From IMG/VR virus record IMGVR_UViG_3300045988_079407: 32,423 nucleotides of DNA, one strand, 5' to 3'. The notes under the pieces were generated by a model that had not been told where the DNA came from, did not search any database, and saw only the letters and a list, made by a program, of their open reading frames with translations. The translations under genes and the position numbers were made by a program. Of this stretch, positions 5,812 to 32,423 are shown piece after piece. This DNA comes from a virus (lineage: Duplodnaviria > Heunggongvirae > Uroviricota > Caudoviricetes). Within the stretch, counting starts at the first letter, position 1. Every line of letters begins with the position of its first letter.

Positions 5812-7884
5812 TTACCAGCCCGTAATGTAGTTATCGCCCGCGTAAATATTCAGCCCCATACCGTCCTCGGTGACGCGGGAACTGGTCAGACGTAACCCCT
5901 CGCCAAGTTCGACGCGCAGCGAGGCTTCCGCATTCACTTTTTGCTCCTGCGGCTCCTTATCCGGGGCCGTCCATTTCTGATACAGGTCGGTTACAAAACC
6001 GCCCAGATACTCCCCGGCGACACTGCCCAGCGTGGCACCGGCAACCGTACCCAGCGGTCCGGCAAGGCTGCCAACGGCACCGCCGAGCCATGCACCGGCT
6101 GTACTGCCAATTGCGCCTGCTTTTTCATGGGTTGACGCCTGCTCATCCATCAGGACGGGGGCAAGCTGTAGTGCCCCCATTACCGGGCCACCCAGACGTG
6201 ACAACGCACGACCGGCACCTTTCCCCATCCAGCCCAGCGCCCCGGCACCTTTCGTCACAACCCGACCGATCACACTGCCTGAAAGTTTGTTTCCGATACC
6301 GGAAAACCACCCGCCAACAGCACGCCCGGCATCAGCCAGCTTTCCGACCGTTCCCGTAACCAGTTGCCCGGCAGCACTGCCTGCAAGCCTGCTCAGAAGA
6401 CCGGATTTACCGGGTAAAGGTAATGGTGCAGGCCGTGCCGTTACCGGTACGCCGGGTGGGGGTAATGCCAGTACAGGGCGTGGTGCAGGTAATGCCAGCG
6501 GCTGTGGCCCGGACAGCAATAACGGCTGGCGGGGTAACAGCGGGGCCATTCTTCCGCCGCTCCGTACGCGACGACCGCCGCCACTCCTGTAGCCACCAAA
6601 TCCACGGGGCCAGTTGATGACAAACACACGCTGAATGCCGATACCCTGCAACAGCGTCTCAGACGTCATGGCATCCGGGACCGGCAGACCTGCCTGCCCA
6701 CGTTTGCGGTTTCGCATCCAGCGCCACATACGACGCCCGGTTTTAAACGGATAACTGGCAACCTGCCATGAGGGTTTTGCCACGGCCCAGCCTGCTCTCA
6801 GGGCTTTATTGGCAAGCCAGACAGACACCAGAACAGCAGCCAGTTTTTTCAGGCTGACAATATTCTGGTCAACCCATGCCAGCGCATCTTTACCCGGTTT
6901 CAGCCAGCGCCATAATTCCTGTGCCGCGATTTTTACCGTTCTGAACGTGGTCAGAAATTTCTGACCAATGTTTTCTGCCAGTGCATCAAGTTCCCCGGAT
7001 TTATCCGCCATGTCGTGCCAGTTAAGCACCCGGCGCATCTCGTTCTTGATTTCTTCAAAGGGGCCGCTGTTTGCCACCTTTATGCGAAATTCAAGCAGGT
7101 TAGCTTCCATCTGGGCGAACATCCCGTCCCAGGAGTTCATCGCACTGGCCTGTGCACCTTTTGACTGTTCTGACAGCGTTCTGAATACCGTCAGAATGGA
7201 TTTCAGGCCCAGCTTGCCTTTTTCACCTTGTTTGCGGATATCCTTAACGTCTTTACCCAGTGCATCCGCCAGCGTCTGGTAAACGTTAATACCGTAACCG
7301 GTCAGCAGGTTGGCATCCGCCGCTGTGATTTGCTGGCGGGCAAACATCTGTTTCAGTTGCAGTGAGGCACCCTGTGCAGTGGGTAAATCCCAGCCGTGCA
7401 TGGCCCCCTGATCCTGCAACATGGTGATGAACTGTTTCGTCTGTTCATCCGTCATGCCGAAGCCTTTTGACGAACGGATCTCATCCAGAACACCACTCAG
7501 CCCCCACGTGGTGTCCTTCGCGTTCTGCTTTGCCCAGGCCATCATGGCCTGCGCTCTGACCTTATCGCCGTGATACAGCGAGTTCATGGCGATAATCTGT
7601 TGCTCACGCTGGGCGGCTGCACCAATAAACAGTTTATTGGCGGTGTAACCCACGCCAGCGATACCCAGCGCCCCGGCTGACAGCATTCGGAATGTACGGG
7701 TTGACAGAGAACCCATTCTGTCAATGGCACCAGAAACGCGCACAACCTCCATACGCAGGGCACGAAGGGAACTTTGCCCGCTACGGGACAGGGCGTTTAT
7801 CTGGTTCGAATACTGGCGGGAACGCCGGGAAAGATTGCCATTAAGATCAATAATGACAGACGCCTTTAAGCGTTTCCCGGTCAT
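5812..7884 (-). CDS. Tail tape measure protein (about 690 aa from the ATG at 7884)
   Basis: Long ORF with a helical N-terminal half, a Pro-rich linker ([33 protein letters not shown]) and a Gly/Ala-rich hydrophobic C-terminus. The internal ATG at 7884 (MTGKRLK) has an AGGAAA Shine-Dalgarno about 9 nt upstream; the track ATG at 7977 has none, so the start is uncertain. Confidence 0.8.
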
Positions 7885-23030: not shown

Positions 23031-23420
23031 TTAAAACAAAGGGGGGGAATACTGACGATACTTTATACGCCGCATTCGTCGGATGGCTTTATAGACTGTG
23101 TTAAATGTCACACCATGACGGATTGCCAGTTCGTGAACATTGCGACCGTTGAAATCATTCCAGATACGCAAATCCCGAATCAGCGAATCCAGAACCTGAC
23201 CGCGTGGAATGTAGACCTGACCGCCGCCCAGATGCTTACAGATAGCCACAACAATCTCCAGTGAATGGGCCGGATCAACACCTAACCGGGACAATTCCCC
23301 GCGCAGTAAATCGTTCAGCTCCGCCAGCAGTGCCGGAAAGCGTGACGCATCCTCTGCGGGATTGTCAAGATGTGCCAGGATGGTGTCATCCTGCAAATCA
23401 CCAAATAAATCTTCCGTCAT
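23031..23420 (-). CDS. mor: Middle operon regulator Mor (129 aa)
   Basis: 129 aa, Mor/C family; last gene of the early operon, just upstream of the terminator. Confidence 0.85.
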   Translation of the reverse strand: MTEDLFGDLQDDTILAHLDNPAEDASRFPALLAELNDLLRGELSRLGVDPAHSLEIVVAICKHLGGGQVYIPRGQVLDSLIRDLRIWNDFNGRNVHELAIRHGVTFNTVYKAIRRMRRIKYRQYSPPLF

Positions 23421-23968
23421 TGTGCCATCCTCCGTGTCTTTCTGGCATGGGCATAAGCCGCCGTCATGGCATCATAGCCGCGCAGTTCACGACCGGACGG
23501 ACTGACCGGCAATGGAAGCCCGTGACGGGAAAAGGCTTCACGAATACAGCGGATGTGCCACTGCTTGAGTGTTTCGAGGACTGTCAGCAGCGTGTCGCCA
23601 TGACACCACGCCAGTGTGGAAACGCCCTGTCCGCCGTTGCGTTTCGCGGTCAGGCGCTGAACATATTTATCCAGCGCCACATCACCGCCATCGGTAATAA
23701 AACCGTCTTCTGCCATCTGCTGCCAGATTTTATACACCTTCTCGCGGGGTGTGACATGTTCCTTAAAGCGGCGACGGGGGTATTTATTCAGCTTCTTAAA
23801 GCCGCGTTCTTTCATGGCATCGAGCACCTGTTCCAGTTGCGTAACCGTAAGCTCGCGGCAACTGATTTTGCCCGTTTTCTGCATCAGAAAAGCGCGGTAA
23901 GTGTCGTCGTCGAGTTGTAGCTCCCGACGGGCGACATGGATTAATTTAATCAGGGATGTGCGACTCAT
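23417..23968 (-). CDS. gemA: GemA-like protein (Mu gp16-like, 183 aa)
   Basis: ATG at 23968 (MSRTSLIKLIHVARREL) with a GGAGG Shine-Dalgarno 7 nt upstream; overlaps the mor start by 4 nt. The 264-aa track ORF is an upstream extension. Confidence 0.75.
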   Translation of the reverse strand: MSRTSLIKLIHVARRELQLDDDTYRAFLMQKTGKISCRELTVTQLEQVLDAMKERGFKKLNKYPRRRFKEHVTPREKVYKIWQQMAEDGFITDGGDVALDKYVQRLTAKRNGGQGVSTLAWCHGDTLLTVLETLKQWHIRCIREAFSRHGLPLPVSPSGRELRGYDAMTAAYAHARKTRRMAQ

Positions 23969-24037
23969 GATCGTACCTCCGGAAAGAGGCGGTGCTGCAA
24001 CACCGCCATATTCAGTAATAACATAAAAGGAAATATT

Positions 24038-24397
24038 ATGGCTGAACAAGAACAACATACAGTGTCGGATGATGAACAAAACCCAGATTTCGAAACAAAC
24101 CAGAAAGACACCCCTGTTAATAACCAGGATAAATTCTTTGGTATAACCGGTTTTATGCTGGTCGGTAATCTGATGATTAAGCTGATTGAAAACGGTGTTA
24201 TCAACATGCACGATGCTTATGACATCATCAGAAATACACAGGCCAGCTATAAGAACCGAAAAACGTTCGAAGAACTGGATTTTGAGGCCGATGAGTATGT
24301 TGATCTGCTGCTCAATAAGCTCTGGGCTTCAAGGCAGGATATTGTTAATGCCGGGAACCTCTCATCAGAGCACACAGATACTGACGCTGTGGAATAA
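24038..24397 (+). CDS. Hypothetical acidic protein (119 aa), opposite strand to the early operon; candidate moron
   Basis: ATG at 24038 with AAAGGA 7-8 nt upstream; strongly acidic with one hydrophobic stretch (FFGITGFMLVGNLMIKLI); about 40% G+C by hand count over the first 60 nt. The only plus-strand ORF here that does not overlap a confident minus-strand gene over most of its length. Confidence 0.5.
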   Translation: MAEQEQHTVSDDEQNPDFETNQKDTPVNNQDKFFGITGFMLVGNLMIKLIENGVINMHDAYDIIRNTQASYKNRKTFEELDFEADEYVDLLLNKLWASRQDIVNAGNLSSEHTDTDAVE

Positions 24398-24635
24398 CCG
24401 CTGAATCATCAACGCCAAGCTCACGACAAACAATATTGTTGTGGGCTTTTTTGTTATGCAACAAAACTTCGTCGCGTATGAGATGAATTTCCCGTGTCAT
24501 AATTTCAAGGGCCTCTCTCGCAGAAAAGCCTTTACTGATTGCAGTCTCAATAACATCGCGCATACGCTCAAGCATCTTAGCTTTCACCAGTTCTTCATCC
24601 AGGTCTTTAGGCGTAAATTTAGTTTCATTATTCAT
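24345..24635 (-). CDS. Hypothetical early protein (96 aa from the ATG at 24635)
   Basis: ATG (MNNETKF) with an AAGGTG Shine-Dalgarno; the upstream stop sits 2 nt away; helical charged protein. Its 3' end overlaps the plus-strand ORF by 53 nt. Confidence 0.5.
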   Translation of the reverse strand: MNNETKFTPKDLDEELVKAKMLERMRDVIETAISKGFSAREALEIMTREIHLIRDEVLLHNKKAHNNIVCRELGVDDSAVIPQRQYLCALMRGSRH

Positions 24636-24636
24636 A

Positions 24637-24819
24637 TTATTCACCTTCACAATTCATGCACGCCGTGTCATCGCCCATATCGCAGTGGTTGCATTTCTGC
24701 CCGCCACAATGAGGGCACTCTTTCAGATATTCAGGGGATTCATTACCGCAGGTCGGGCATTCCTGTTTCACCGTGGTAAATTTCCCCAGCCACGAATACG
24801 ATGTTTCATTGTTTTCCAT
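24637..24819 (-). CDS. Small zinc-ribbon protein (60 aa)
   Basis: CPTC ... CPHC ... CNHC ... CMNC, eight Cys in 60 aa; start overlaps the upstream gene. Confidence 0.5.
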   Translation of the reverse strand: MENNETSYSWLGKFTTVKQECPTCGNESPEYLKECPHCGGQKCNHCDMGDDTACMNCEGE

Positions 24820-25336
24820 TGTTTACCTCCGCCTGTTTTTGCGCCCGGATAAATTCGTCAGAAAGGATTTCAGTCATGCGGCCTTGCGCGGGTGTCATCC
24901 CCGTCATGACGTAAATCACATCACCAACACGGAACCACTGGAGCGGCCCGAATATTGTTGCGCTGAAATCCAGTCCCAGTGCGGGTAAAAGAGCGTCTGT
25001 GCGGGCGTAAGTGACCGGAATATTCTCCTGCCATATTTTCGCCAGCTCTCTTGCCTGCTCCCTGAGATGAGCAGGTATTCGCGAAGTTCTGGGCCTGCAA
25101 CTGTTACCTGATGCGGGCCGTTGTACGGTCCACAGCTCCCGCGAGAAGGGGCGCTCATTCCCCGGAAAATTCACGCCATGAAAATGACGCCCACCAATAC
25201 CTGTGCTGAATACTGACCGGCAACCACAACCCAGAACCTTATCAAGATGGCGGGCTTCTTCGCGTAGTTTCAGACAGTTCGCCATAAACTGGTCCCACGC
25301 CAGCAGTGCTGCGGGATTTGACGTTTTAAAAAACAT
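24806..25336 (-). CDS. Hypothetical early protein (176 aa from the ATG at 25336)
   Basis: The internal ATG (MFFKTSNPAALL) coincides with the stop of the upstream gene; the track's 189-aa form overlaps that gene by 40 nt. Confidence 0.55.
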   Translation of the reverse strand: MFFKTSNPAALLAWDQFMANCLKLREEARHLDKVLGCGCRSVFSTGIGGRHFHGVNFPGNERPFSRELWTVQRPASGNSCRPRTSRIPAHLREQARELAKIWQENIPVTYARTDALLPALGLDFSATIFGPLQWFRVGDVIYVMTGMTPAQGRMTEILSDEFIRAQKQAEVNNGKQ

Positions 25337-25866
25337 CACGCCACCTCCTGCACCGCTGCGGGAGCCGGAGAACAATCAAGAATGAGATAACGCAGTACAT
25401 GGTCGGTGATATTCCAGGCGCTTGAACTGCAAATAAAACGCCCCAGCCGGATATCGATATAAGCCATCACAAAACGGGGCATTCCCTGTTCGCACATTCT
25501 GTTATCCACCTCAGCAACAATGTGGACTGACTCACAGGTCAGCACGCCCGTCGCAAACTCTTTTGCCAGCGCGGGGATGGTATTACCTTCCACCCAGGGT
25601 AATGAGCGACGCCAGTTACACCACACCGCATCATCAACAGCAGGCTGCTCAGTTGCGTTTCGTCTTACAGGCGGCGTCGGACGCGGGCGCGGAACGTCAT
25701 AAAATCCGTTGCATTCGGTGAGCACTCCGGCATCAACCGCATCACGCAGGAAATACACCATTGACGAGGGCAGCATATTCATTTTTTCAGCCAGAACCCC
25801 GCAGGTCAGGCGTCCGTAAGCCCGTAATAATGCGCTGACACCATTCAGAATTTTTGCATCAACCAT
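25336..25866 (-). CDS. Hypothetical early protein with a winged-helix-like N-terminus (176 aa)
   Basis: ORF in the track; first gene after the AT-rich gap that follows gam. Confidence 0.55.
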   Translation of the reverse strand: MVDAKILNGVSALLRAYGRLTCGVLAEKMNMLPSSMVYFLRDAVDAGVLTECNGFYDVPRPRPTPPVRRNATEQPAVDDAVWCNWRRSLPWVEGNTIPALAKEFATGVLTCESVHIVAEVDNRMCEQGMPRFVMAYIDIRLGRFICSSSAWNITDHVLRYLILDCSPAPAAVQEVA

Positions 25867-25964
25867 GTTTTATTCCTCAGTAATCTGTTTCAGGCGCGAG
25901 CAATCCCCTGACGCATCGCGCCATAATTAAAAGAATGTGAATTAATTAAATATTAATGGTGGTA

Positions 25965-26489
25965 TTAAATACCGGCTTCCTGTTCAAACGGAATAATGGA
26001 AAAATCTTCAATTCCCGATTTAACCGTAATTCCGGCAACACCTGCGACGGCTTTTGGTTCCAGTAAAATCGCCTCCTTGTTGATTTCCTGCTTCGTGCGA
26101 ATAAAGCGTTGCAGGCCAAGACGCTCCAGCGTTTCCATCACTGCATCCATACCACGAATACTTACTGATGGTGGACGGACCCGCCACGATACATCACCGG
26201 TGACAAGATTCGCCGTCTTCACTTTGCCGCCGCTCGTCAGTTCGTCGCGGTTCGCTTCACACCATCCCTGAACGCCTTTTGAAAGGGTTTCAATATCGGT
26301 TTTAATCGGTGCAATCCGGGCCGCAAATTTCTCCGTAATTTCCGCGATGGCATCATTCATTTCCGTTTCCAGACGTGATGCTTCGCGCTGTAAATCCCCG
26401 ATGCGTTTAATATCGGTAATCACCGCATCGCGGTTTTGTGGCACATAAGCCGCTGCGGCGCTTTTGATACGTTTTGCTGGTTTAGCCAT
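25965..26489 (-). CDS. gam: Host-nuclease inhibitor Gam (174 aa, DNA end-binding)
   Basis: 174 aa with a coiled-coil N-terminal half (GDLQREASRLETEMNDAIAEITEKF); size and position match Mu Gam. Confidence 0.85.
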   Translation of the reverse strand: MAKPAKRIKSAAAAYVPQNRDAVITDIKRIGDLQREASRLETEMNDAIAEITEKFAARIAPIKTDIETLSKGVQGWCEANRDELTSGGKVKTANLVTGDVSWRVRPPSVSIRGMDAVMETLERLGLQRFIRTKQEINKEAILLEPKAVAGVAGITVKSGIEDFSIIPFEQEAGI

Positions 26490-26508
26490 AAATTAAAGCT
26501 CCTGTTAA

Positions 26509-26808
26509 TTAATATCCGCTGTATACAATGCTGGATACAGCTCGATTGCTTAATTCCATCTTTCGGGCAATGACATGAATATCCAGTCCTTCTTTATAAA
26601 GTTCACGACATAAATATTTGTCGTGTTCACTGATTCGGTATACACACAATGATATTCCGTGCCTTCTGGCATGTGCCCGGAGGGCGGTTGTGGCGACTTT
26701 CAGTTTTTCCGCCATTTCTTCAACGGTCATTTTCCCGACGTTGGCTTCGATAAATTCCCGGTCTTCGCGTGACCAGCGCTTACGATTACACTTCATGTCA
26801 GCCACCAT
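26509..26808 (-). CDS. Small DNA-binding protein with two HTH-like motifs (99 aa)
   Basis: MTVEEMAEKLKVATTALRAHARRHG and LDIHVIARKMELSNRAVSSIVY resemble helix-turn-helix segments; start abuts the upstream stop. Confidence 0.5.
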   Translation of the reverse strand: MVADMKCNRKRWSREDREFIEANVGKMTVEEMAEKLKVATTALRAHARRHGISLCVYRISEHDKYLCRELYKEGLDIHVIARKMELSNRAVSSIVYSGY

Positions 26809-27228
26809 TCAGTACAGCAGAGGCTCGCGCAGTGATGCCGGAATATGCCGCAGCGATAACTGAACCGCTTTCAGGGCAAGCGAGGAATAACAGCAGCGCG
26901 CCCAGCCTTTTGCCATTAACCGGTAATCGCGCCAGATACGCTGCCACATTTCACGGGCTTCAGGGTCTGATGCGCAGATGTATTCCCGGTCCATGACGTA
27001 CTCCCATAAATCCACGTTGAACGCACCGCCAAATGCAATGGCGTGGGATATGCTTTCGCCGCAATAACGTGCACAGATGCTGTAATGGTCGAAAGCAATC
27101 AGGTAAGTCTTTTCACCACAATCATCAACTTTCCGGGCGCAAATAAACTCGCGTAATTCACCACCGTTGTTATTGCGTTCCTGAATTCGGATTAATGCCT
27201 GAATTTCATTTCGGATTTTGACGTTCAT
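26809..27228 (-). CDS. Hypothetical early protein (139 aa, Cys-rich)
   Basis: ORF in the track in the semi-essential region. Confidence 0.5.
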   Translation of the reverse strand: MNVKIRNEIQALIRIQERNNNGGELREFICARKVDDCGEKTYLIAFDHYSICARYCGESISHAIAFGGAFNVDLWEYVMDREYICASDPEAREMWQRIWRDYRLMAKGWARCCYSSLALKAVQLSLRHIPASLREPLLY

Positions 27229-27248
27229 TGTCAGCGTTCCTTTGCGAA

Positions 27249-27518
27249 TTAATGTTTAACCGCATTCACCGGATGTGGTACTAAATCACATTCAGCCTCC
27301 ATACCCACTTTCTTCATAGTGGTCAGCATCTCATCTTTGGCCTTTTTAATAATTTCAGGAGCCATAGTCAGGACGATATTTGCCAGTAAATCATGAGGTC
27401 CGGTATTTTCCGTTGGCGAGATATCTGCAAGACATGCTTTTGCATCCAGAACTTCTCTGCGCCCATTGCAACCTTCACTACTTTCCAGCCATGTAAACTC
27501 AAAGATAACTTTTGCCAT
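27249..27518 (-). CDS. Hypothetical early protein (89 aa)
   Basis: ORF in the track in the semi-essential region. Confidence 0.45.
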   Translation of the reverse strand: MAKVIFEFTWLESSEGCNGRREVLDAKACLADISPTENTGPHDLLANIVLTMAPEIIKKAKDEMLTTMKKVGMEAECDLVPHPVNAVKH

Positions 27519-27529
27519 TTTGCGTCTCC

Positions 27530-27760
27530 TTATTGATTCTGAATAACTGCGCTGGCTTTTACCTTCGCGCCTTTTACCTGCTTAAAGAAAACCGCGCTGC
27601 ACCACGGACAACATGCAAAGGAGTCCCATACTTCATTTTCTGGTGAGCATTGCGTCATAATTTGCTCTTTGCATTTGGGGCAATTAAATGCAGTCAAAGC
27701 CACATTGTTATTCTGTACCCGTTTAACCCATTCAATATATTTTTCAGCTTTAGTACACAT
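27530..27760 (-). CDS. Small zinc-finger protein (about 76 aa from the ATG at 27760)
   Basis: CPKC ... CCPWC; the internal ATG follows the kil-like stop by 2 nt. Confidence 0.45.
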   Translation of the reverse strand: MCTKAEKYIEWVKRVQNNNVALTAFNCPKCKEQIMTQCSPENEVWDSFACCPWCSAVFFKQVKGAKVKASAVIQNQ

Positions 27761-27762
27761 CG

Positions 27763-27990
27763 TTATCTCCAGATAATCTGGCAACCATTAAGACGGGCCG
27801 TCCATACAGAACGGGCCACCCCGGACTTATGCTCCATAATTCTGACCGCGTTTTTTACCAGTTCCACCGGTGGGTAAGTGATTTCAAGAATCGGACGCGC
27901 CACGCCGAGATATGATTCATTTACATGACTCCCGCGCGCCTGTAACCAGTTCTGCGCATCCGTTGCCATTTTTATATTTCGGGCCATCAT
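27763..27990 (-). CDS. Kil-like small protein (75 aa), first gene after B
   Basis: 75 aa in the position where Mu encodes kil; assigned by position only. Confidence 0.45.
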
Positions 27991-28005: not shown

Positions 28006-28944
28006 TTAATTACGCAGCAGCGTTGAAATATCAACGTCCAGGTCTAATTCACGGAAAGCCTGACGCAGATAATCTTCGTTAACACGCTCACCTTTACCGT
28101 GAGCCGTCATGGCGGCAAGGCGAAGTGAATGATTCAGAATGCGAAGCGCACCTGGTTTCTGCGCAATCTGCTGTAATAACTCCAGTTCTTTTTCGCCGTT
28201 AATCTGCCAGGCATCCGCAATAGCTTTTACATCGGCTTTTTTGGTTTTATTAATTGCAGTGCGCTTTGCAATACGGGAAAACAGACGGGCAAATTCAACC
28301 GTTCTGTTACCCCCCGTCATATTTGAATAAACCCGGTGATTTCCCATCAGCACAAGGCCAATACGGGTTGATTCCTGTAACAGGCGGAGTTCTTCCAGAA
28401 CTTCGGCACCAAGATGATCAGCTTCGTCGATGATAACCAGCCCTTGTGTACCTTCAAGGCGACGTCGCAGGGCGCGGGAGAGCGGCCCTTTACGGCGTGG
28501 TGCGTCATTCATTCCCAGCTCAAACGCCAGTTCAGTAAGACATTCCAGAACGCTGGCACAGGATGGCGTAATGGTGATCATCCAGACATTGTTATTGGTG
28601 CGGCGATATTCACGGGCAGCTTCGGTTTTGCCCACACCAGGATTGCCACATACAACAGCAATACTTTCAGTCAGGCTGGCAAAACGCATACTTGTCCAGA
28701 TTTGTTTTACCGTCTGCGTTTCCACAAAGCGGGGCGGTTCAGGTAGTTCTGCAACTGCATGATATTTTTCCAGCCAGCGTTGCAGAATTTGTGAAACACG
28801 CTCGTTATCCCCGTTGTACTTATCATTGATAAAACTACTGATAGTTCCGGTAGAAAGTCCGCTCTCAAGAGCAATTTGTTTAAAGGTGGTTTCTTCATTT
28901 TCTACAAGCGTGCGCAGTCCTGCGCGAATATCGGAAATATTCAT
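28006..28944 (-). CDS. B: Transposition ATPase MuB (AAA+ target-DNA activator, 312 aa)
   Basis: 312 aa with a Walker A motif (GNPGVGKTE) and Walker B motif (LVIIDEADHL) after an N-terminal HTH-like region; immediately downstream of the transposase. Confidence 0.95.
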   Translation of the reverse strand: MNISDIRAGLRTLVENEETTFKQIALESGLSTGTISSFINDKYNGDNERVSQILQRWLEKYHAVAELPEPPRFVETQTVKQIWTSMRFASLTESIAVVCGNPGVGKTEAAREYRRTNNNVWMITITPSCASVLECLTELAFELGMNDAPRRKGPLSRALRRRLEGTQGLVIIDEADHLGAEVLEELRLLQESTRIGLVLMGNHRVYSNMTGGNRTVEFARLFSRIAKRTAINKTKKADVKAIADAWQINGEKELELLQQIAQKPGALRILNHSLRLAAMTAHGKGERVNEDYLRQAFRELDLDVDISTLLRN

Positions 28945-28982: not shown

Positions 28983-30980
28983 TTAAATGGCTTTTTTACG
29001 TCTGTTCTGTTCCAGAATATCCAGCGAATGATTCAGATATTCATCACGCTCAGTTTCGTATTCATCATCACGCTCCTGATTCTTCACTCGTTCCGTATTA
29101 CCGGAAGGCCGGAAAATGCCGACAATTCGTGATTCTGGTGCTTCAGGTTCGGCTATCTGCGGCAGCAGCTCTGCCACTTCCAGTGCATCCATTTGTTTCT
29201 GTGCCTTAATTGCTGCTTTCGTCGCAGATTTCAGTTGTTTCTGGCGGCGGCGATATTCACGGCCTGCCGCAGCATCATTAAACGCAACAGGTGCCAGACA
29301 TTCCGCTTCACAGATAAACCGACCGTCCAGGGTGTAGCAATAAACCGTGCTGTGTAACTGCTGTGGATCAAATCTGACCACAACTTTTTTCACTCCGGCA
29401 TTCATTAACGCCATGTTGTAATAAACGTTTTTCGCACCTTTAAGGGAGCCACCAACTTTAAGCGCGAACTCGCCTTTACGTGAAACGTTCACTGCCTCGG
29501 CAGGCAGTAACAGCATCCGTTTTTGCTCTTCGGTAGGCTTACGCACAATCGTTCTGGCGTATTCACGCTCAAAAACGTCATCAAACGAAAGTTTGCCTCC
29601 GCACATTTCTGTTTCACGGCCTGTTCTGGCATTGAACATCGCCACACCTTCGGCAAGGGTTTTCAGAAACAGCTCTGCATCAACAGCGCGGTCGCCATAG
29701 TTATCAGGTTTTGCCTGCGGATTAGGCCCCGTATATGCGCCAGCCAGTGCCGGATGCTTATCAACGTATTCCTCAAGCCCACCAACACCGAAAGCACGTT
29801 CAACAGGTTTTGCCTGGCCCCAGCCTTTACCGGCAACAACGCTTGTCCAGTGCATTTTCGCCCCCATCAGTAAAAACAGTCCTTTTGGATCGTCCTCTTT
29901 TACCTTAAAGCGGTAGCGATTGGGCGCGCCTCCCGTCAGCCATTTATTCGCAGCACCACGGGTGTTATCAATGGTGATGTGAAAATCCTCCGGGATACCG
30001 TAGCGAGTCACAACATCCATGAACGAGAGGCGAATTGAATCAATGTTCTCGCTCACATCGCAGCGCCAGCCCAGAATTTTTCGGGTTTTCACATCCTGCC
30101 AGAACCATGTTTTCGGACGGATCACATCACCGTTAAACCAGCGTACAAAGACGTTATGCAGATAACCGTCGCCGTTGATCCACTGCATGGCGTCCAGGTG
30201 TTCCACAGTTCGCTGCTGTGCCGGTATCAGATGCATCAGTGCATGTTCACCTTCACGACAGGCAACAACCATTGCCTCGTCCAGTTGCTGAATCCGGCGA
30301 AAGGCCGTGGCACGGGAGGGAATACTCCAGCCATGCTCGCGGGCTGCCAGTTCCAGACGCTCATAACATTTGCGGAAGGCGGGTTTTTCCGGTCGCAGAT
30401 AATCTGCAATCAGAAACTGCCAGGCATCCTCGTCAAATTCACTTTTGTGAACGTTGCGACGGGATGCACCACGTCCATCAACAAGCGCAGCCGCCCAGTC
30501 AGGCTTCGCAAACTTCTGTACCTGGTAATACTTGTCCCGCAAAGTGGATGCGCTGACCTGGTAATGCCCTGCAACGGTCGCAAAAGCCGTTTTTGTTGAA
30601 ATCCCCTGGTTCAGCATTTCGTCTGCAGCCTGAACCGCAGGCAACCATTTTTCAGCAAGTCTGCGCTGGGAATCGCTGGCGTTATCCCATTTGCTCCACA
30701 GCACCTCACGATCATAATCATGGGCTTCCAGCGTGGGGCGGGCGATTTCAAAATACCCCTGGCTTGTTTCTATTTGCTCAGATTTTAATAACAACTCAGC
30801 ACGTGCTGCCGCTGGCAGAACTGATATATGAAATTCCAAAGCCTTTGAACCCGTACGCTTGCGACGTAGTTCTGGATGATTGGCTGCAAGCTTTTCAAGA
30901 TTGCGGCGAATACTCACCTCATGTTTAGGAAAGCATGACATTCCTACGCATTCTTGCGCTGTTACCCAATGGGTTAACAT
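28983..30980 (-). CDS. A: DDE transposase MuA (665 aa from the ATG at 30980)
   Basis: ATG at 30980 ([11 protein letters not shown]) with a GGAG Shine-Dalgarno 8 nt upstream; the track's longer form starts at a TTG. The core closely matches Mu A as I recall it, but the N-terminal DNA-binding domain differs. Confidence 0.95.
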
Positions 30981-31201
30981 GATGTTTTCTCCATATACCG
31001 AGAAGGCCAAATCTGGGCTGGTTCCATATCCAAATATCTAGCAATGATTGCTTCGTATCGTGGTATATGGCAGCGAAATACGTTACGCATAGTGTCAGGC
31101 TTTAAGCCTGCCTCTCTGGATAATTGAGATAGTGTCTTCCCCTTCATACGAACAGCAGCCTTTATCTGCTCTGCGTGCCAGTCTTGGTTTTTTGCTGACA
31201 T
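30974..31201 (-). CDS. ner: Ner-like transcriptional regulator (75 aa)
   Basis: 75 aa, Ner/Nlp family (conserved IWPSRY); AAGGA Shine-Dalgarno; first gene of the early operon, divergent from the repressor. Confidence 0.85.
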
Positions 31202-31370
31202 TCTGCGATCCTTACTTTCTTAACGTTTTCGGTAACTGATACCGGCTACCGCTATCGGGAAAAACGATAGCGCAGAAAAATGCGCATTTCAAGAGCTATG
31301 CGCATTTTTATTTTAACCAATGCAAATCAAAGCATTCTGTAAAATTCTTTATATAACAGAGAGATTGAGC
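31202..31370. promoter_or_regulatory. Divergent early/repressor promoter-operator region (Pe/Pc with operators; expected site of the transposition enhancer)
   Basis: Inverted repeat cgctatcg-ggaaaa-cgatagcg (31250..31271) and two ATGCGCAT palindromes (31278..31289 as aaatgcgcattt; 31298..31305), 18 bp centre to centre; located between ner and c. Confidence 0.7.
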
Positions 31371-31979
31371 ATGACAGGTGAAAAAGAAAGCAAAAATGCA
31401 GAGCGCATTTTTATGCCATCTGAAATAATGCGTTTCAAGGAACGCCTTGAAGAGGCAATGAATGGAGAATCAAGCCGGGCGTTTGCAGCTAAGTGCGGAC
31501 TCTCTGATGGGGTTATCAGAAACTACCTGTCTGGCAAGACATACCCGTCTTTAGATCGATTAGCACAAATAGCCTACGCAACAGGGCGTCCAATAGAGTG
31601 GTTTATCCAAAGTCAGAGCATGCCAATGGTTGAGCATAAAAATACTCAAGAGAATAAAAATCCTCAACCTGACCGCAGCACATTGAAAACTAAACTGATC
31701 GCAATTGTCGAATTGTTAGAGGACAAGGAACTGCATTCTGCGATTGAGTTGTTCAGAAAGAAAGGATTTGAAGCTCTTATGCCTGAGATTTTTTCTTCCG
31801 ATGATTCCATCCAGGCTAATTTGCAAGGTATTTCGCAACAAACCTTACAAACAGCCAAAATGCTTGAATCATTACCAACAGATACTCGTAAAGAGATTTT
31901 GTCAAAGTATGGTATTTATGAACAGGAAGGTCTTGTAGCTCCTTCACAAGAACCACAAGATGTAAAAAAAGCCGTATAA
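31371..31979 (+). CDS. c: Mu-type repressor c (about 202 aa from the ATG at 31371)
   Basis: Transcribed away from the early operon. The C-terminus (KEILSKYGIYEQEGLVAPSQEPQDVKKAV) resembles the Mu repressor tail as I recall it; the N-terminal DNA-binding domain differs. Start could also be 31320 or the later MPSEIMRF. Confidence 0.8.
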   Translation: MTGEKESKNAERIFMPSEIMRFKERLEEAMNGESSRAFAAKCGLSDGVIRNYLSGKTYPSLDRLAQIAYATGRPIEWFIQSQSMPMVEHKNTQENKNPQPDRSTLKTKLIAIVELLEDKELHSAIELFRKKGFEALMPEIFSSDDSIQANLQGISQQTLQTAKMLESLPTDTRKEILSKYGIYEQEGLVAPSQEPQDVKKAV

Positions 31980-32145
31980 CAACCATGAACCAGCTAAAAC
32001 ATACTTCACCTCACATAATCACACATGTAACATACCTAAACGGCATGAGCTGATTTGTGATATGAGTCATTTGGTTACAGCCTGGTTGTTATCGGTTTTG
32101 AACGTTTTTTGAAGCTGTTATTGAAATGATTTGCAGTGTTTTTGT

Positions 32146-32423
<278 letters not shown>

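Follow-up and report, generated by a model that had tools for sequence, protein, structure and literature searches.

The semi-essential early region of a Mu/D108-type prophage: a long-known gene block with a conserved gp11–gp12 junction

The semi-essential region of Mu

The semi-essential (SE) region of phage Mu (NC_000929, Mup05–Mup14, ~4.3–8.0 kb) belongs to the early transcript made from Pe and is described as having "largely uncharacterized functions" (PMC3820752). Its genes are carried on the Pe transcript, are dispensable for growth, and are toxic to the host; their functions are called "largely unknown/uncharacterized" (PMC3820752, PMC3325207). Two genetically defined activities, arm (amplified replication of Mu) and cim (control of immunity), are mapped to the SE region and are assigned to no specific ORF in PMC4553209 and PMC3325207. 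A later functional assignment for SE genes was sought in the literature and not found. The SE regions of D108 (NC_013594, kil to 14) and Mu_3F6 (LR595867) serve as the other close references.

Identity of the block

The window described here is a stretch of 32,423 nucleotides from a virus of the Caudoviricetes (IMG/VR record IMGVR_UViG_3300045988_079407). Its minus-strand block at 24345–27990 can be assigned with high confidence to the SE early region of a transposable prophage of the Mu/D108 type (Muvirus), and no observation speaks against this assignment. It is bounded by B upstream and gemA (gp16) downstream, and all ten of its genes lie on the minus strand, as do A and B (Table 1). Position and strand are the same as in Mu, and the gene order is that of the Mu, D108, and Mu_3F6 references. 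On the DNA level, the block is 97.3% identical to Mu_3F6 (100% of the query), 94.1% to D108 (100%), and 97.1% to Mu (85%), with D108 and Mu_3F6 matching it from end to end; the remainder of the window shares 98% identity with Muvirus genomes. Position, collinearity, and DNA identity hence bear out the proposal of an earlier note, made from the letters alone, that a Mu-like SE early region lies between B and gemA.

The minus-strand genes are kil, gp6, gp7, gp8, gp9, gam, gp11, gp12, gp13, and gp14, making ten as opposed to the eleven counted in that note; the extra coding sequence lies on the plus strand at 24038–24397. An eleventh gene, encoding 102 aa, is present between gp13 and gp14 in vB_YpM_5, SfMu, and the prophage of Escherichia coli FDAARGOS_1059 and is absent here. 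Each of the ten proteins is 98 to 100% identical to one encoded by Mu, D108, Mu_3F6, vB_YpM_5, SfMu, or a prophage of E. coli, so that the gene-by-gene comparison leaves none that is unique to this phage. The matches do not turn the block into a set of characterized proteins, since the Mu proteins themselves carry no assigned functions; the view that the genes besides gam and kil are uncharacterized agrees with the Mu literature (PMC3820752, PMC3325207).

Table 1 Features of the SE block and its boundaries, in the direction of minus-strand transcription
Feature	Position	Strand	Length	Description
B	28006..28944	-		transposition ATPase; upstream boundary
kil (gp5)	27763..27990	-	75 aa	host-killing/septation-inhibition protein
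gp6 (E5)	27530..27760	-	76 aa	zinc-ribbon-like, C27xxC30 ... C50C51xxC54
gp7 (E6)	27249..27518	-	89 aa	allelic slot
gp8 (E7)	26809..27228	-	139 aa	7 Cys
gp9 (E8)	26509..26808	-	99 aa	tandem HTH-like
gam (gp10)	25965..26489	-	174 aa	double-strand DNA end-binding host-nuclease inhibitor
gam/gp11 spacer	25867..25964	-	98 nt	non-coding; AT-rich stretch, then GC hairpin
gp11	25336..25866	-	176 aa	N-terminal region + Gp11_C domain
gp12 (E13)	24806..25336	-	176 aa	alpha/beta protein
gp13 (E14)	24637..24819	-	60 aa	four CxxC motifs
gp14 (E15)	24345..24635	-	96 aa	D108-type allele
intrinsic-terminator-like hairpin	24417..24448	+		13-bp stem, then TTTTTTGTT; within gp14 coding sequence
convergent gene	24038..24397	+	119 aa	acidic (pI 4.3); D108-type counterpart of Mu gp15
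gemA (gp16)	23417..23968	-		downstream boundary

Gene packing

With the reference starts, the spacings at the ten junctions between B and gp14 are 15, 2, 11, 20, 0, 19, 98, -1, -14, and 1 nt. The genes form the tight array of small genes that had been noticed before, and the accompanying claim that most of them are joined by overlapping stop and start codons is overstated: only gp11/gp12 (TGATG, 1 nt) and gp12/gp13 (14 nt) overlap, and three other junctions are spaced at 0 to 2 nt. Additional overlaps arise only if the longest TTG- or GTG-initiated ORFs are taken instead of the reference starts. Each gene has a Shine–Dalgarno sequence or a coupled start, and dN/dS ranges from 0.02 to 0.42 across all ten, the mark of purifying selection. 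The only large intergenic gap within the block is the spacer between gam and gp11. Its fold is not separable from shuffled sequences (z = -1.8), and it contains neither an Rfam match nor a promoter- or terminator-like site in the scan. The scan likewise called no internal sigma-70-like promoter on the minus strand of the block.

Kil and Gam

The coding sequence of Kil is 100% identical to those of Mu, D108, and Mu_3F6, and the protein matches PHROG 2743, "Kil protein for bacterial septation inhibition" (E = 2.8e-43). A gene previously called kil-like by its position is therewith confirmed as kil on further grounds. Gam, which the earlier note had also recognized, matches the Pfam family Phage_Mu_Gam (E = 4.1e-42; 144 bits, cut-off 28.3) and is 99.4% identical to the Gam proteins of Mu and D108. 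Among the genes of the block, only these two have roles of the host-nuclease, restriction, or replication type.

The gp11–gp12 pair

gp11 is 99% identical to its Mu counterpart and 90% to that of D108, and contains the Pfam domain Gp11_C (PF25754; E = 1.2e-40; 138.1 bits, cut-off 27). gp12 is 98% identical to Mu gp12; its structural model is confident (pLDDT 92), and no resemblance to it was found among solved structures. In all 68 loci with enough flanking sequence, gp11 lies directly upstream of gp12, and the stop codon of the former overlaps the start codon of the latter by 1 nt (TGATG) in 64 of 64 loci. This arrangement points to a translationally coupled and strictly conserved gene pair, the products of which probably act together, as judged from the coupling of their genes.

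The HTH-like protein gp9

gp9 is 100% identical to D108 and Mu_3F6 and 99% to Mu, and matches PHROG 323, "transcriptional regulator, D5-like" (E = 7e-29). Two HTH-like motifs had been read from its sequence. Weak matches to HTH families do occur at two sites (residues ~22–50 and ~69–93), all of them below the curated Pfam and NCBIfam cut-offs, such as NCBIfam HTH_Cbp1 with E = 0.0026; the best match of the family profile in the PDB is 2lvs_A (E = 0.009). An alignment of one half against the other is not significant, with 560 of 2000 shuffles scoring as high. The tandem character hence rests on the profile matches and on the alignment of gp9 to repeats 2 and 3 of homologues with three repeats and 177 to 183 aa, which sit after gp12 in distant relatives. 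Taken together, gp9 is probably a tandem HTH DNA-binding protein. Its single match in PADLOC-DB is at chance level (E = 0.0099).

The cysteine-rich proteins gp6 and gp13

Both cysteine-rich proteins described in the earlier note are found. The one of about 76 aa is gp6, whose CPKC and CCPWC motifs are kept in the Mu allele as well. gp6 matches PHROG 3786 and occurs as two alleles: the one present here is 100% identical in vB_YpM_5, SfMu, and the FDAARGOS_1059 prophage and 78% identical to Mu and 76% to both D108 and Mu_3F6. The differences concentrate at residues 14–50 (pS = 0.57, pN/pS = 0.46), which indicates a recombined segment, not positive selection.

The one of 60 aa is gp13, with the motifs CPTC, CPHC, CNHC, and CMNC. 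Its eight cysteines are invariant or nearly so among homologues, which also share a CDMGDD..CMNCE core. gp13 is 100% identical to D108, vB_YpM_5, and SfMu and 97% to Mu; against divergent copies, dN/dS is ~0.03 with dS saturated, and the protein is found in only 14 clusters among 5.8 billion proteins. A relationship with the DnaJ family (DnaJ_CXXCXGXG, PF00684) was rejected, as the match stays below the cut-off (19.2 versus 32.7 bits, E = 0.0015) and both the spacing and the glycines differ. The cysteine pairs of gp6 and gp13 are kept in all homologues, and the Pfam zinc-ribbon matches are all sub-threshold. By their cysteine patterns, the two are putative small zinc-binding modules, gp13 probably being a mini-domain with two zinc ions.

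gp7, gp8, gp14, and the convergent gene

The sequences of gp7, gp8, and gp14 appear to give no readable function. gp7 (PHROG 2230; dN/dS 0.09–0.42) is 98 to 99% identical to Mu_3F6 (99%), vB_YpM_5, and FDAARGOS_1059 and 42% to D108 gp7, and has no tblastn match in Mu. gp8 is 99% identical to D108, Mu_3F6, and vB_YpM_5 and 95% to Mu. Its clusters number only 24 in a set of 5.8 billion proteins, it has no match in Pfam, NCBIfam, PADLOC, or the PDB, and its AlphaFold2 model shows no usable fold (pLDDT 47). gp14 (PHROG 6075) is 99 to 100% identical to D108 and Mu_3F6 and 37 to 42% to Mu-type gp14 (42% to that of Mu itself), and adjoins gp13 in distant loci too.

Where Mu carries its 88-aa gp15, this phage has the 119-aa plus-strand gene, which shares 53 nt with the 3' end of gp14 and is preceded by a good Shine–Dalgarno sequence (AAAGGA). 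D108, in which it is unannotated, and Mu_3F6, in which it is annotated as hypothetical, contain it at 100% identity; across the surrounding 23900–24460, 561 nt in all, a single nucleotide separates this phage from D108. The protein matches PHROG 38610 and aligns with Mu gp15 in hhalign (probability 69%, E = 4.6e-5). Seven representatives are found among 1.84 billion proteins: a conserved core is common to the six short ones, and the seventh, a cysteine-rich repeat protein of 606 aa, was judged unrelated by eye. The terminator-like hairpin begins 20 nt past the stop codon of the gene. None of 200 shuffles folded as well (z = -3.3), and on the minus strand no T-run follows it. gp13 and gp14 tend to co-occur with the antisense gene. 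Among 5426 complete E. coli genomes, 51 match this stretch somewhere, mostly by short flank matches, and one contains the D108-type gp14/gp15 cassette.

Conserved backbone and variable slots

The closest relatives differ from this block in only a few genes. Compared with Mu, Kil (100%), Gam, gp9, gp11, gp12, gp13, and gp8 are 95 to 100% identical, and the differences lie in gp6, gp7, gp14, and the gp15 position. Compared with D108 and Mu_3F6, gp8, gp9, gp13, gp14, and the plus-strand ORF are 99 to 100% identical; gp6 differs from both, and gp7 and gp11 differ from D108.

In distant enterobacterial Mu-like prophages (IMG/VR loci L024–L076 and Citrobacter braakii L008), B is only ~48% identical. 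Presence and absence were herein determined by iterated HMM searches over a set of small ORFs, in which drift is possible for short proteins. The backbone of these prophages reads B, kil, gp7, gam, gp11, gp12, and gemA, with the 1-nt gp11/gp12 overlap kept. Of the 29 complete distant loci, the Kil family is found in 28, the gp7 family also in 28, directly ahead of gam, and the gp6 family in none. gp8 is mostly absent, other small genes occupy the slots, and some loci contain the cassette of gp13, gp14, and antisense gp15. The HTH protein is the three-repeat form after gp12, whereas gp9 here precedes gam. The comparison thus indicates a conserved backbone (kil, gp7, gam, gp11–gp12, a gp9-type HTH protein, and gemA) with interleaved swap slots, in which alleles or cassettes of gp6, gp7, gp8, and gp13–gp14 with an antisense gp15-type gene are exchanged.

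Functional interpretation

The block would be the portion of the long early transcript downstream of A and B, transcription from Pe being taken from the Mu literature. Kil would kill the host and block its division, and Gam would bind double-strand DNA ends and block host exonucleases, both being near-identical to their Mu counterparts. gp9 would bind DNA through its tandem HTH motifs, gp6 and gp13 would act as small zinc-binding modules, and gp11 and gp12 would be co-produced by means of their 1-nt overlap, with a probable joint action of the two proteins. As a set, following the Mu literature, the SE proteins would be dispensable for plaques, toxic to the host, and would prepare the cell for replicative transposition. 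None of the eight unassigned proteins yields a match to a characterized family, a defence model, a solved structure, or an RNA family in Pfam, NCBIfam, PHROG, PADLOC-DB, the PDB, or Rfam.

A tentative reading of the core proteins gp7, gp9, and gp11–gp12 is that they provide SE functions of the arm or cim type, acting as helpers of replication and transposition on DNA or the transpososome and not on host defences. The mapping of arm and cim to the SE region without specific ORFs (PMC4553209, PMC3325207) leaves room for such an assignment, and the HTH-type features of gp9 as well as the coupling of gp11 and gp12, next to gam in every relative sampled, are consistent with it.

It is doubtful that most of the small unassigned genes encode proteins dedicated to inhibiting host immunity, directed against restriction, RecBCD-linked systems, or abortive infection. 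The proposal of the earlier note that each small gene is a candidate modulator of host nucleases, restriction, or replication is not contradicted by the data. Gam, a bona fide host-nuclease inhibitor, lies in the same operon, and several slots resemble cargo: gp6 has two alleles that are ~77% identical, the alleles of gp7 and gp14 are 37 to 42% identical or undetectable, a 102-aa gene and a DUF5420 gene are optional in relatives, the D108-type gp14/gp15 cassette is rare in E. coli (1/5426), and distant relatives carry gp6, gp8, gp13, and gp14 sporadically or not at all. However, purifying selection acts on all genes, and even the variable patch of gp6 shows no excess of amino-acid changes. No anti-defence homology is detected by Pfam, NCBIfam, PHROGs, or the PDB, nor does PADLOC-DB yield a match to a block protein beyond the chance-level gp9 hit, which, as these are general libraries, weighs little; no paper found assigns such a role. 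Since relatives with a B of only ~48% identity retain kil, gp7, a gp9-like gene, gam, gp11, and gp12, this core looks more like conserved phage housekeeping or host takeover than like fast-turnover counter-defence cargo.

Less likely still, the block would comprise two unrecognized units: gp11–gp12 with a core early function such as arm or cim, and a cassette of gp13, gp14, and the convergent antisense gene with its own terminator, in which the antisense gene may be switched on in the repressed prophage and regulate, or be regulated by, the early transcript. That some small ORFs would be products of annotation and not genes is highly improbable and effectively refuted by the conservation data: they are short (60–96 aa), lack named families, and stand beside many alternative ORFs of like size on both strands, but each has a Shine–Dalgarno sequence or coupled start, comparison with divergent copies gives each a dN/dS far below 1, and each has homologues conserved across numerous independent prophages and a PHROG family of its own.

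Conclusion

The SE block of this prophage is an ordinary copy of a region that is long known and mostly uncharacterized. Two modest additions are made to the knowledge of this region, namely the apparent coupling of gp11 and gp12 and the tendency of gp13, gp14, and the antisense gene to occur together.

Identity and gene inventory of the region

The small minus-strand genes densely packed between B and gemA (24345–27990) match Mu-group phages only when compared with 50,697 phage records by megablast. Mu_3F6 (97.3% DNA identity) and D108 (94.1%) cover the entire query, and Mu covers 85% of it at 97.1%. The annotated records of Mu, D108, and Mu_3F6 have the gene order B, kil, 6, 7, 8, 9, gam, 11, 12, 13, 14, gemA, mor in common. 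DNA identity and gene order shared with the Mu group mark the block, at the level of sequence, as the semi-essential (SE) early region of a Mu/D108-type prophage; the remainder of the window is ~98% identical to Muvirus genomes. The earlier note had thus named the region correctly, and its description as mostly uncharacterised agrees with the literature on Mu, where the SE region belongs to the long early transcript from Pe and its functions are given as "largely unknown/uncharacterized" (PMC3820752).

With reference start codons, ten minus-strand genes are found instead of the eleven previously counted. All ten are real genes, since comparison with divergent copies shows purifying selection on each (dN/dS 0.02–0.42), with an especially strong constraint on gp13 (dN/dS ~0.03). 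Going from B to gp14, the junction lengths are 15, 2, 11, 20, 0, 19, 98, −1, −14, and 1 nt. Having overlaps at two junctions and distances of 0–2 nt at three others, the genes had been described too strongly as mostly coupled by overlapping stop and start codons; overlaps prevail solely when the longest TTG/GTG ORFs are used. The spacer between gam and gp11 is the sole sizeable noncoding gap of the block. Within it, an AT-rich stretch precedes a GC-rich hairpin; the fold of the spacer is not significant (z = −1.8), and an Rfam search gave no match.

Features of the region, with protein identities and occurrence in distant loci. Gene coordinates were set with reference start codons. Identities (%) were determined per gene by tblastn (dash, no match at E ≤ 0.01). 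Family counts stem from an iterated profile search of locus ORFs in 29 complete loci with B <70% identical, and such profiles can drift on short proteins.
Feature	Coordinates	Strand	Mu	D108	Mu_3F6	vB_YpM_5 / SfMu / FDAARGOS_1059 prophage	Distant loci
B	28006–28944						
kil	27763–27990	-	100	100	100		28/29
gp6	27530–27760	-	78	76	76	100 / 100 / 100	0/29
gp7	27249–27518	-	–	42	99	98 / – / 98	28/29
gp8	26809–27228	-	95	99	99		8/29
gp9 (distant loci: gp9-type HTH protein)	26509–26808	-	99	100	100		23/29
gam	25965–26489	-	99.4	99.4	98.9		21/29
Spacer gam–gp11, 98 nt	25867–25964						
gp11	25336–25866	-	99	90	98		29/29
gp11–gp12 overlap, TGATG	25334–25338						
gp12	24806–25336	-	98	98	99		29/29
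gp13	24637–24819	-	97	100	98		9/29
gp14	24345–24635	-	42	99	100		6/29
Hairpin with T-run	24417–24448	+					
Antisense gp15-type gene, 119 aa	24038–24397	+					6/29
Inverted repeat GGCGGTG-CTGCAA-CACCGCC	23989–24008						
gemA	23417–23968						

A mosaic of known alleles

Genes unique to this phage had been hoped for. In the gene-by-gene comparison, each matches at 98–100% in some sequenced Mu-group genome; hence, none is unique, and the region is a mosaic of known alleles. The differences in gp6 are concentrated in residues 14–50 (pS 0.57). Positive selection on this variable patch is ruled out by a pN/pS of 0.46 at such a high pS, which is the signature of a recombined segment. Optional extra genes of the relatives are marks of insertion slots. 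A gene of 102 aa lies between gp13 and gp14 in vB_YpM_5 (locus L004, 1202–1510), SfMu, and the prophage of E. coli FDAARGOS_1059 (locus L007, 1928–2236), and a DUF5420 gene follows gam in SfMu (locus L005, 2743–3297); both are absent from the window. Outside the block, the megablast matches to D108 and Mu_3F6 end at about 30774, within gene A (unmatched ~30775–32317), so that the N-terminal part of A, together with ner and c beyond it, differs from these two phages. The transposase N terminus and the immunity region seem to belong to a different type; this may be the type of vB_YpM_5 and E. coli FDAARGOS_1059, in which the A gene is longer.

Conserved backbone and exchangeable slots

Relatives of gp12 are encoded by 69 viral contigs and one Citrobacter locus; the scan of species-representative genomes gave a single locus, in Citrobacter braakii. 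In every locus with enough flank, gp11 is located directly upstream of gp12. The gp11 stop and the gp12 start share one base in 64 of 64 loci, and this overlap is retained even at 51–69% protein identity, which suggests an obligatory cotranslation of the gp11–gp12 protein pair. The usual order in distant loci is B, kil, gp7, gam, gp11, gp12, HTH protein, (gp13, gp14, antisense gene), gemA. Together with the family counts, this order depicts the SE region as a conserved backbone with exchangeable slots in between. The picture of accessory genes drawn in the earlier note therefore gains partial support for gp6, gp8, and gp13–gp14. For kil, gp7, gp9, and gp11–gp12, the pattern argues for long-standing phage functions as opposed to fast-turnover counter-defence cargo.

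The gp9-type protein of distant loci is a three-repeat form of 177–183 aa that follows gp12. Such a Myb/HTH-like protein is seen directly after gp12 in the related loci L033, L053, and L024 (about 6520–7070). Of its three repeats, Mu gp9 corresponds to the second and third; in the Mu/D108 lineage, the gp9 gene has become shorter and has moved.

Cysteine-rich and HTH-like proteins

The cysteine motifs reported for gp13 (CPTC, CPHC, CNHC, and CMNC) and gp6 (CPKC and CCPWC) are present and kept in homologues. By these motifs, gp13 resembles a module for two zinc ions. A DnaJ zinc finger fails the threshold (19.2 versus 32.7 bits). A gp12–gp13 fusion, hinted at by PHROG 6418 (231 positions, with gp13 matching 175–231), was dropped because the large-database search with gp13 gave proteins of 42–70 aa only.

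For gp9, the two proposed HTH-like motifs are reflected by a number of weak matches to HTH families, which fall at two distinct sites, although an alignment of one half against the other is not significant. The protein has a strong PHROG match, "transcriptional regulator, D5-like". The best PDB match of its family profile is 2lvs_A (E = 0.009, subthreshold), which we take to be the archaeal protein Cbp2, related to Cbp1, and a weak, subthreshold NCBIfam match leads to Cbp1 itself, a CRISPR-repeat–binding HTH protein. The PDB and NCBIfam matches would fit a tandem homeodomain-like DNA binder.

Known and searched-for functions

Gam clearly belongs to Pfam Phage_Mu_Gam, and Kil does not differ from its Mu counterpart. 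The sole family match of gp11 is Pfam Gp11_C, a family named after gp11 itself, and Pfam, NCBIfam, PHROGs, and PADLOC hold no named function for gp6, gp7, gp8, gp12, gp13, or gp14. Searches of PADLOC, NCBIfam, and Rfam yielded nothing above threshold; the same applies to PDB sequence and profile searches, in which no detectably related solved structure was found. The families are small, comprising 14 clusters for gp13, 24 for gp8, and 55 for gp12 among 5.8 billion proteins. The gp12 model is confident, yet resembles no solved structure; the AlphaFold2 model of gp8 (13 homologues) reached a pLDDT of 47 and was left out of the fold search. No later functional assignment for gp6–9 or gp11–14 was found in the literature, which was covered incompletely, so that this is absence of evidence only. 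For the region as a whole, cells infected by replication-defective Mu regain full viability and lysogen recovery once SE is deleted; hence, the SE region encodes lethal functions (PMC3325207).

The plus-strand gene and neighboring signals

Antisense to the early operon lies an acidic ORF with a good Shine–Dalgarno sequence, which shares 53 nt with the 3′ end of gp14. Beginning 20 nt past its stop, a 13-bp hairpin that leads into a T-run (z = −3.3) is strongly terminator-like on the plus strand; the opposite strand has no T-run. D108 differs by one base in 561 across 23900–24460. The ORF is annotated in Mu_3F6 and unannotated in the D108 RefSeq record. Seven representatives occur among 1.84 billion proteins; six short ones have a conserved core in common, and the other, a cysteine-rich repeat protein of 606 aa, was judged unrelated by eye. 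Direct BLASTP against Mu gp15, which lies antisense at the corresponding place, gave no match. A profile comparison by hhalign gave a moderate signal (probability 69%, E = 4.6e-5), which suggests that the ORF and Mu gp15 are distant alleles. Only a single genome among 5426 complete ones of E. coli carries the D108-type gp14/gp15 cassette, which is thus rare. gemA and the plus-strand ORF start divergently, with 69 nt between their start codons, and the inverted repeat is situated in this interval. Read on the early-transcript strand, the repeat immediately precedes the ribosome-binding site of gemA, where it could act as an attenuator or as a hairpin with a regulatory role.

Significance for the SE region

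The earlier observation was largely right in substance, apart from the gene count and the overlaps. The feature is already known, and the window brings no new gene to the SE-function problem, since each ORF exists at 98–100% identity in sequenced Mu-group genomes. Any experiment on it would be equally feasible in Mu or D108. The practical value of the check is negative: the feature should not rank as a discovery. The SE genes themselves have a clear effect on the host—deletion of the region abolishes killing by nonreplicating Mu—and their functions have been open since the Mu genome was sequenced. Better-defined targets are the gp11–gp12 pair, the gp13–gp14–antisense cassette, and the allelic slots gp6, gp7, and gp14. 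That the pair and the cassette represent unrecognized functional units is rather unlikely and would, if true, be of moderate interest.
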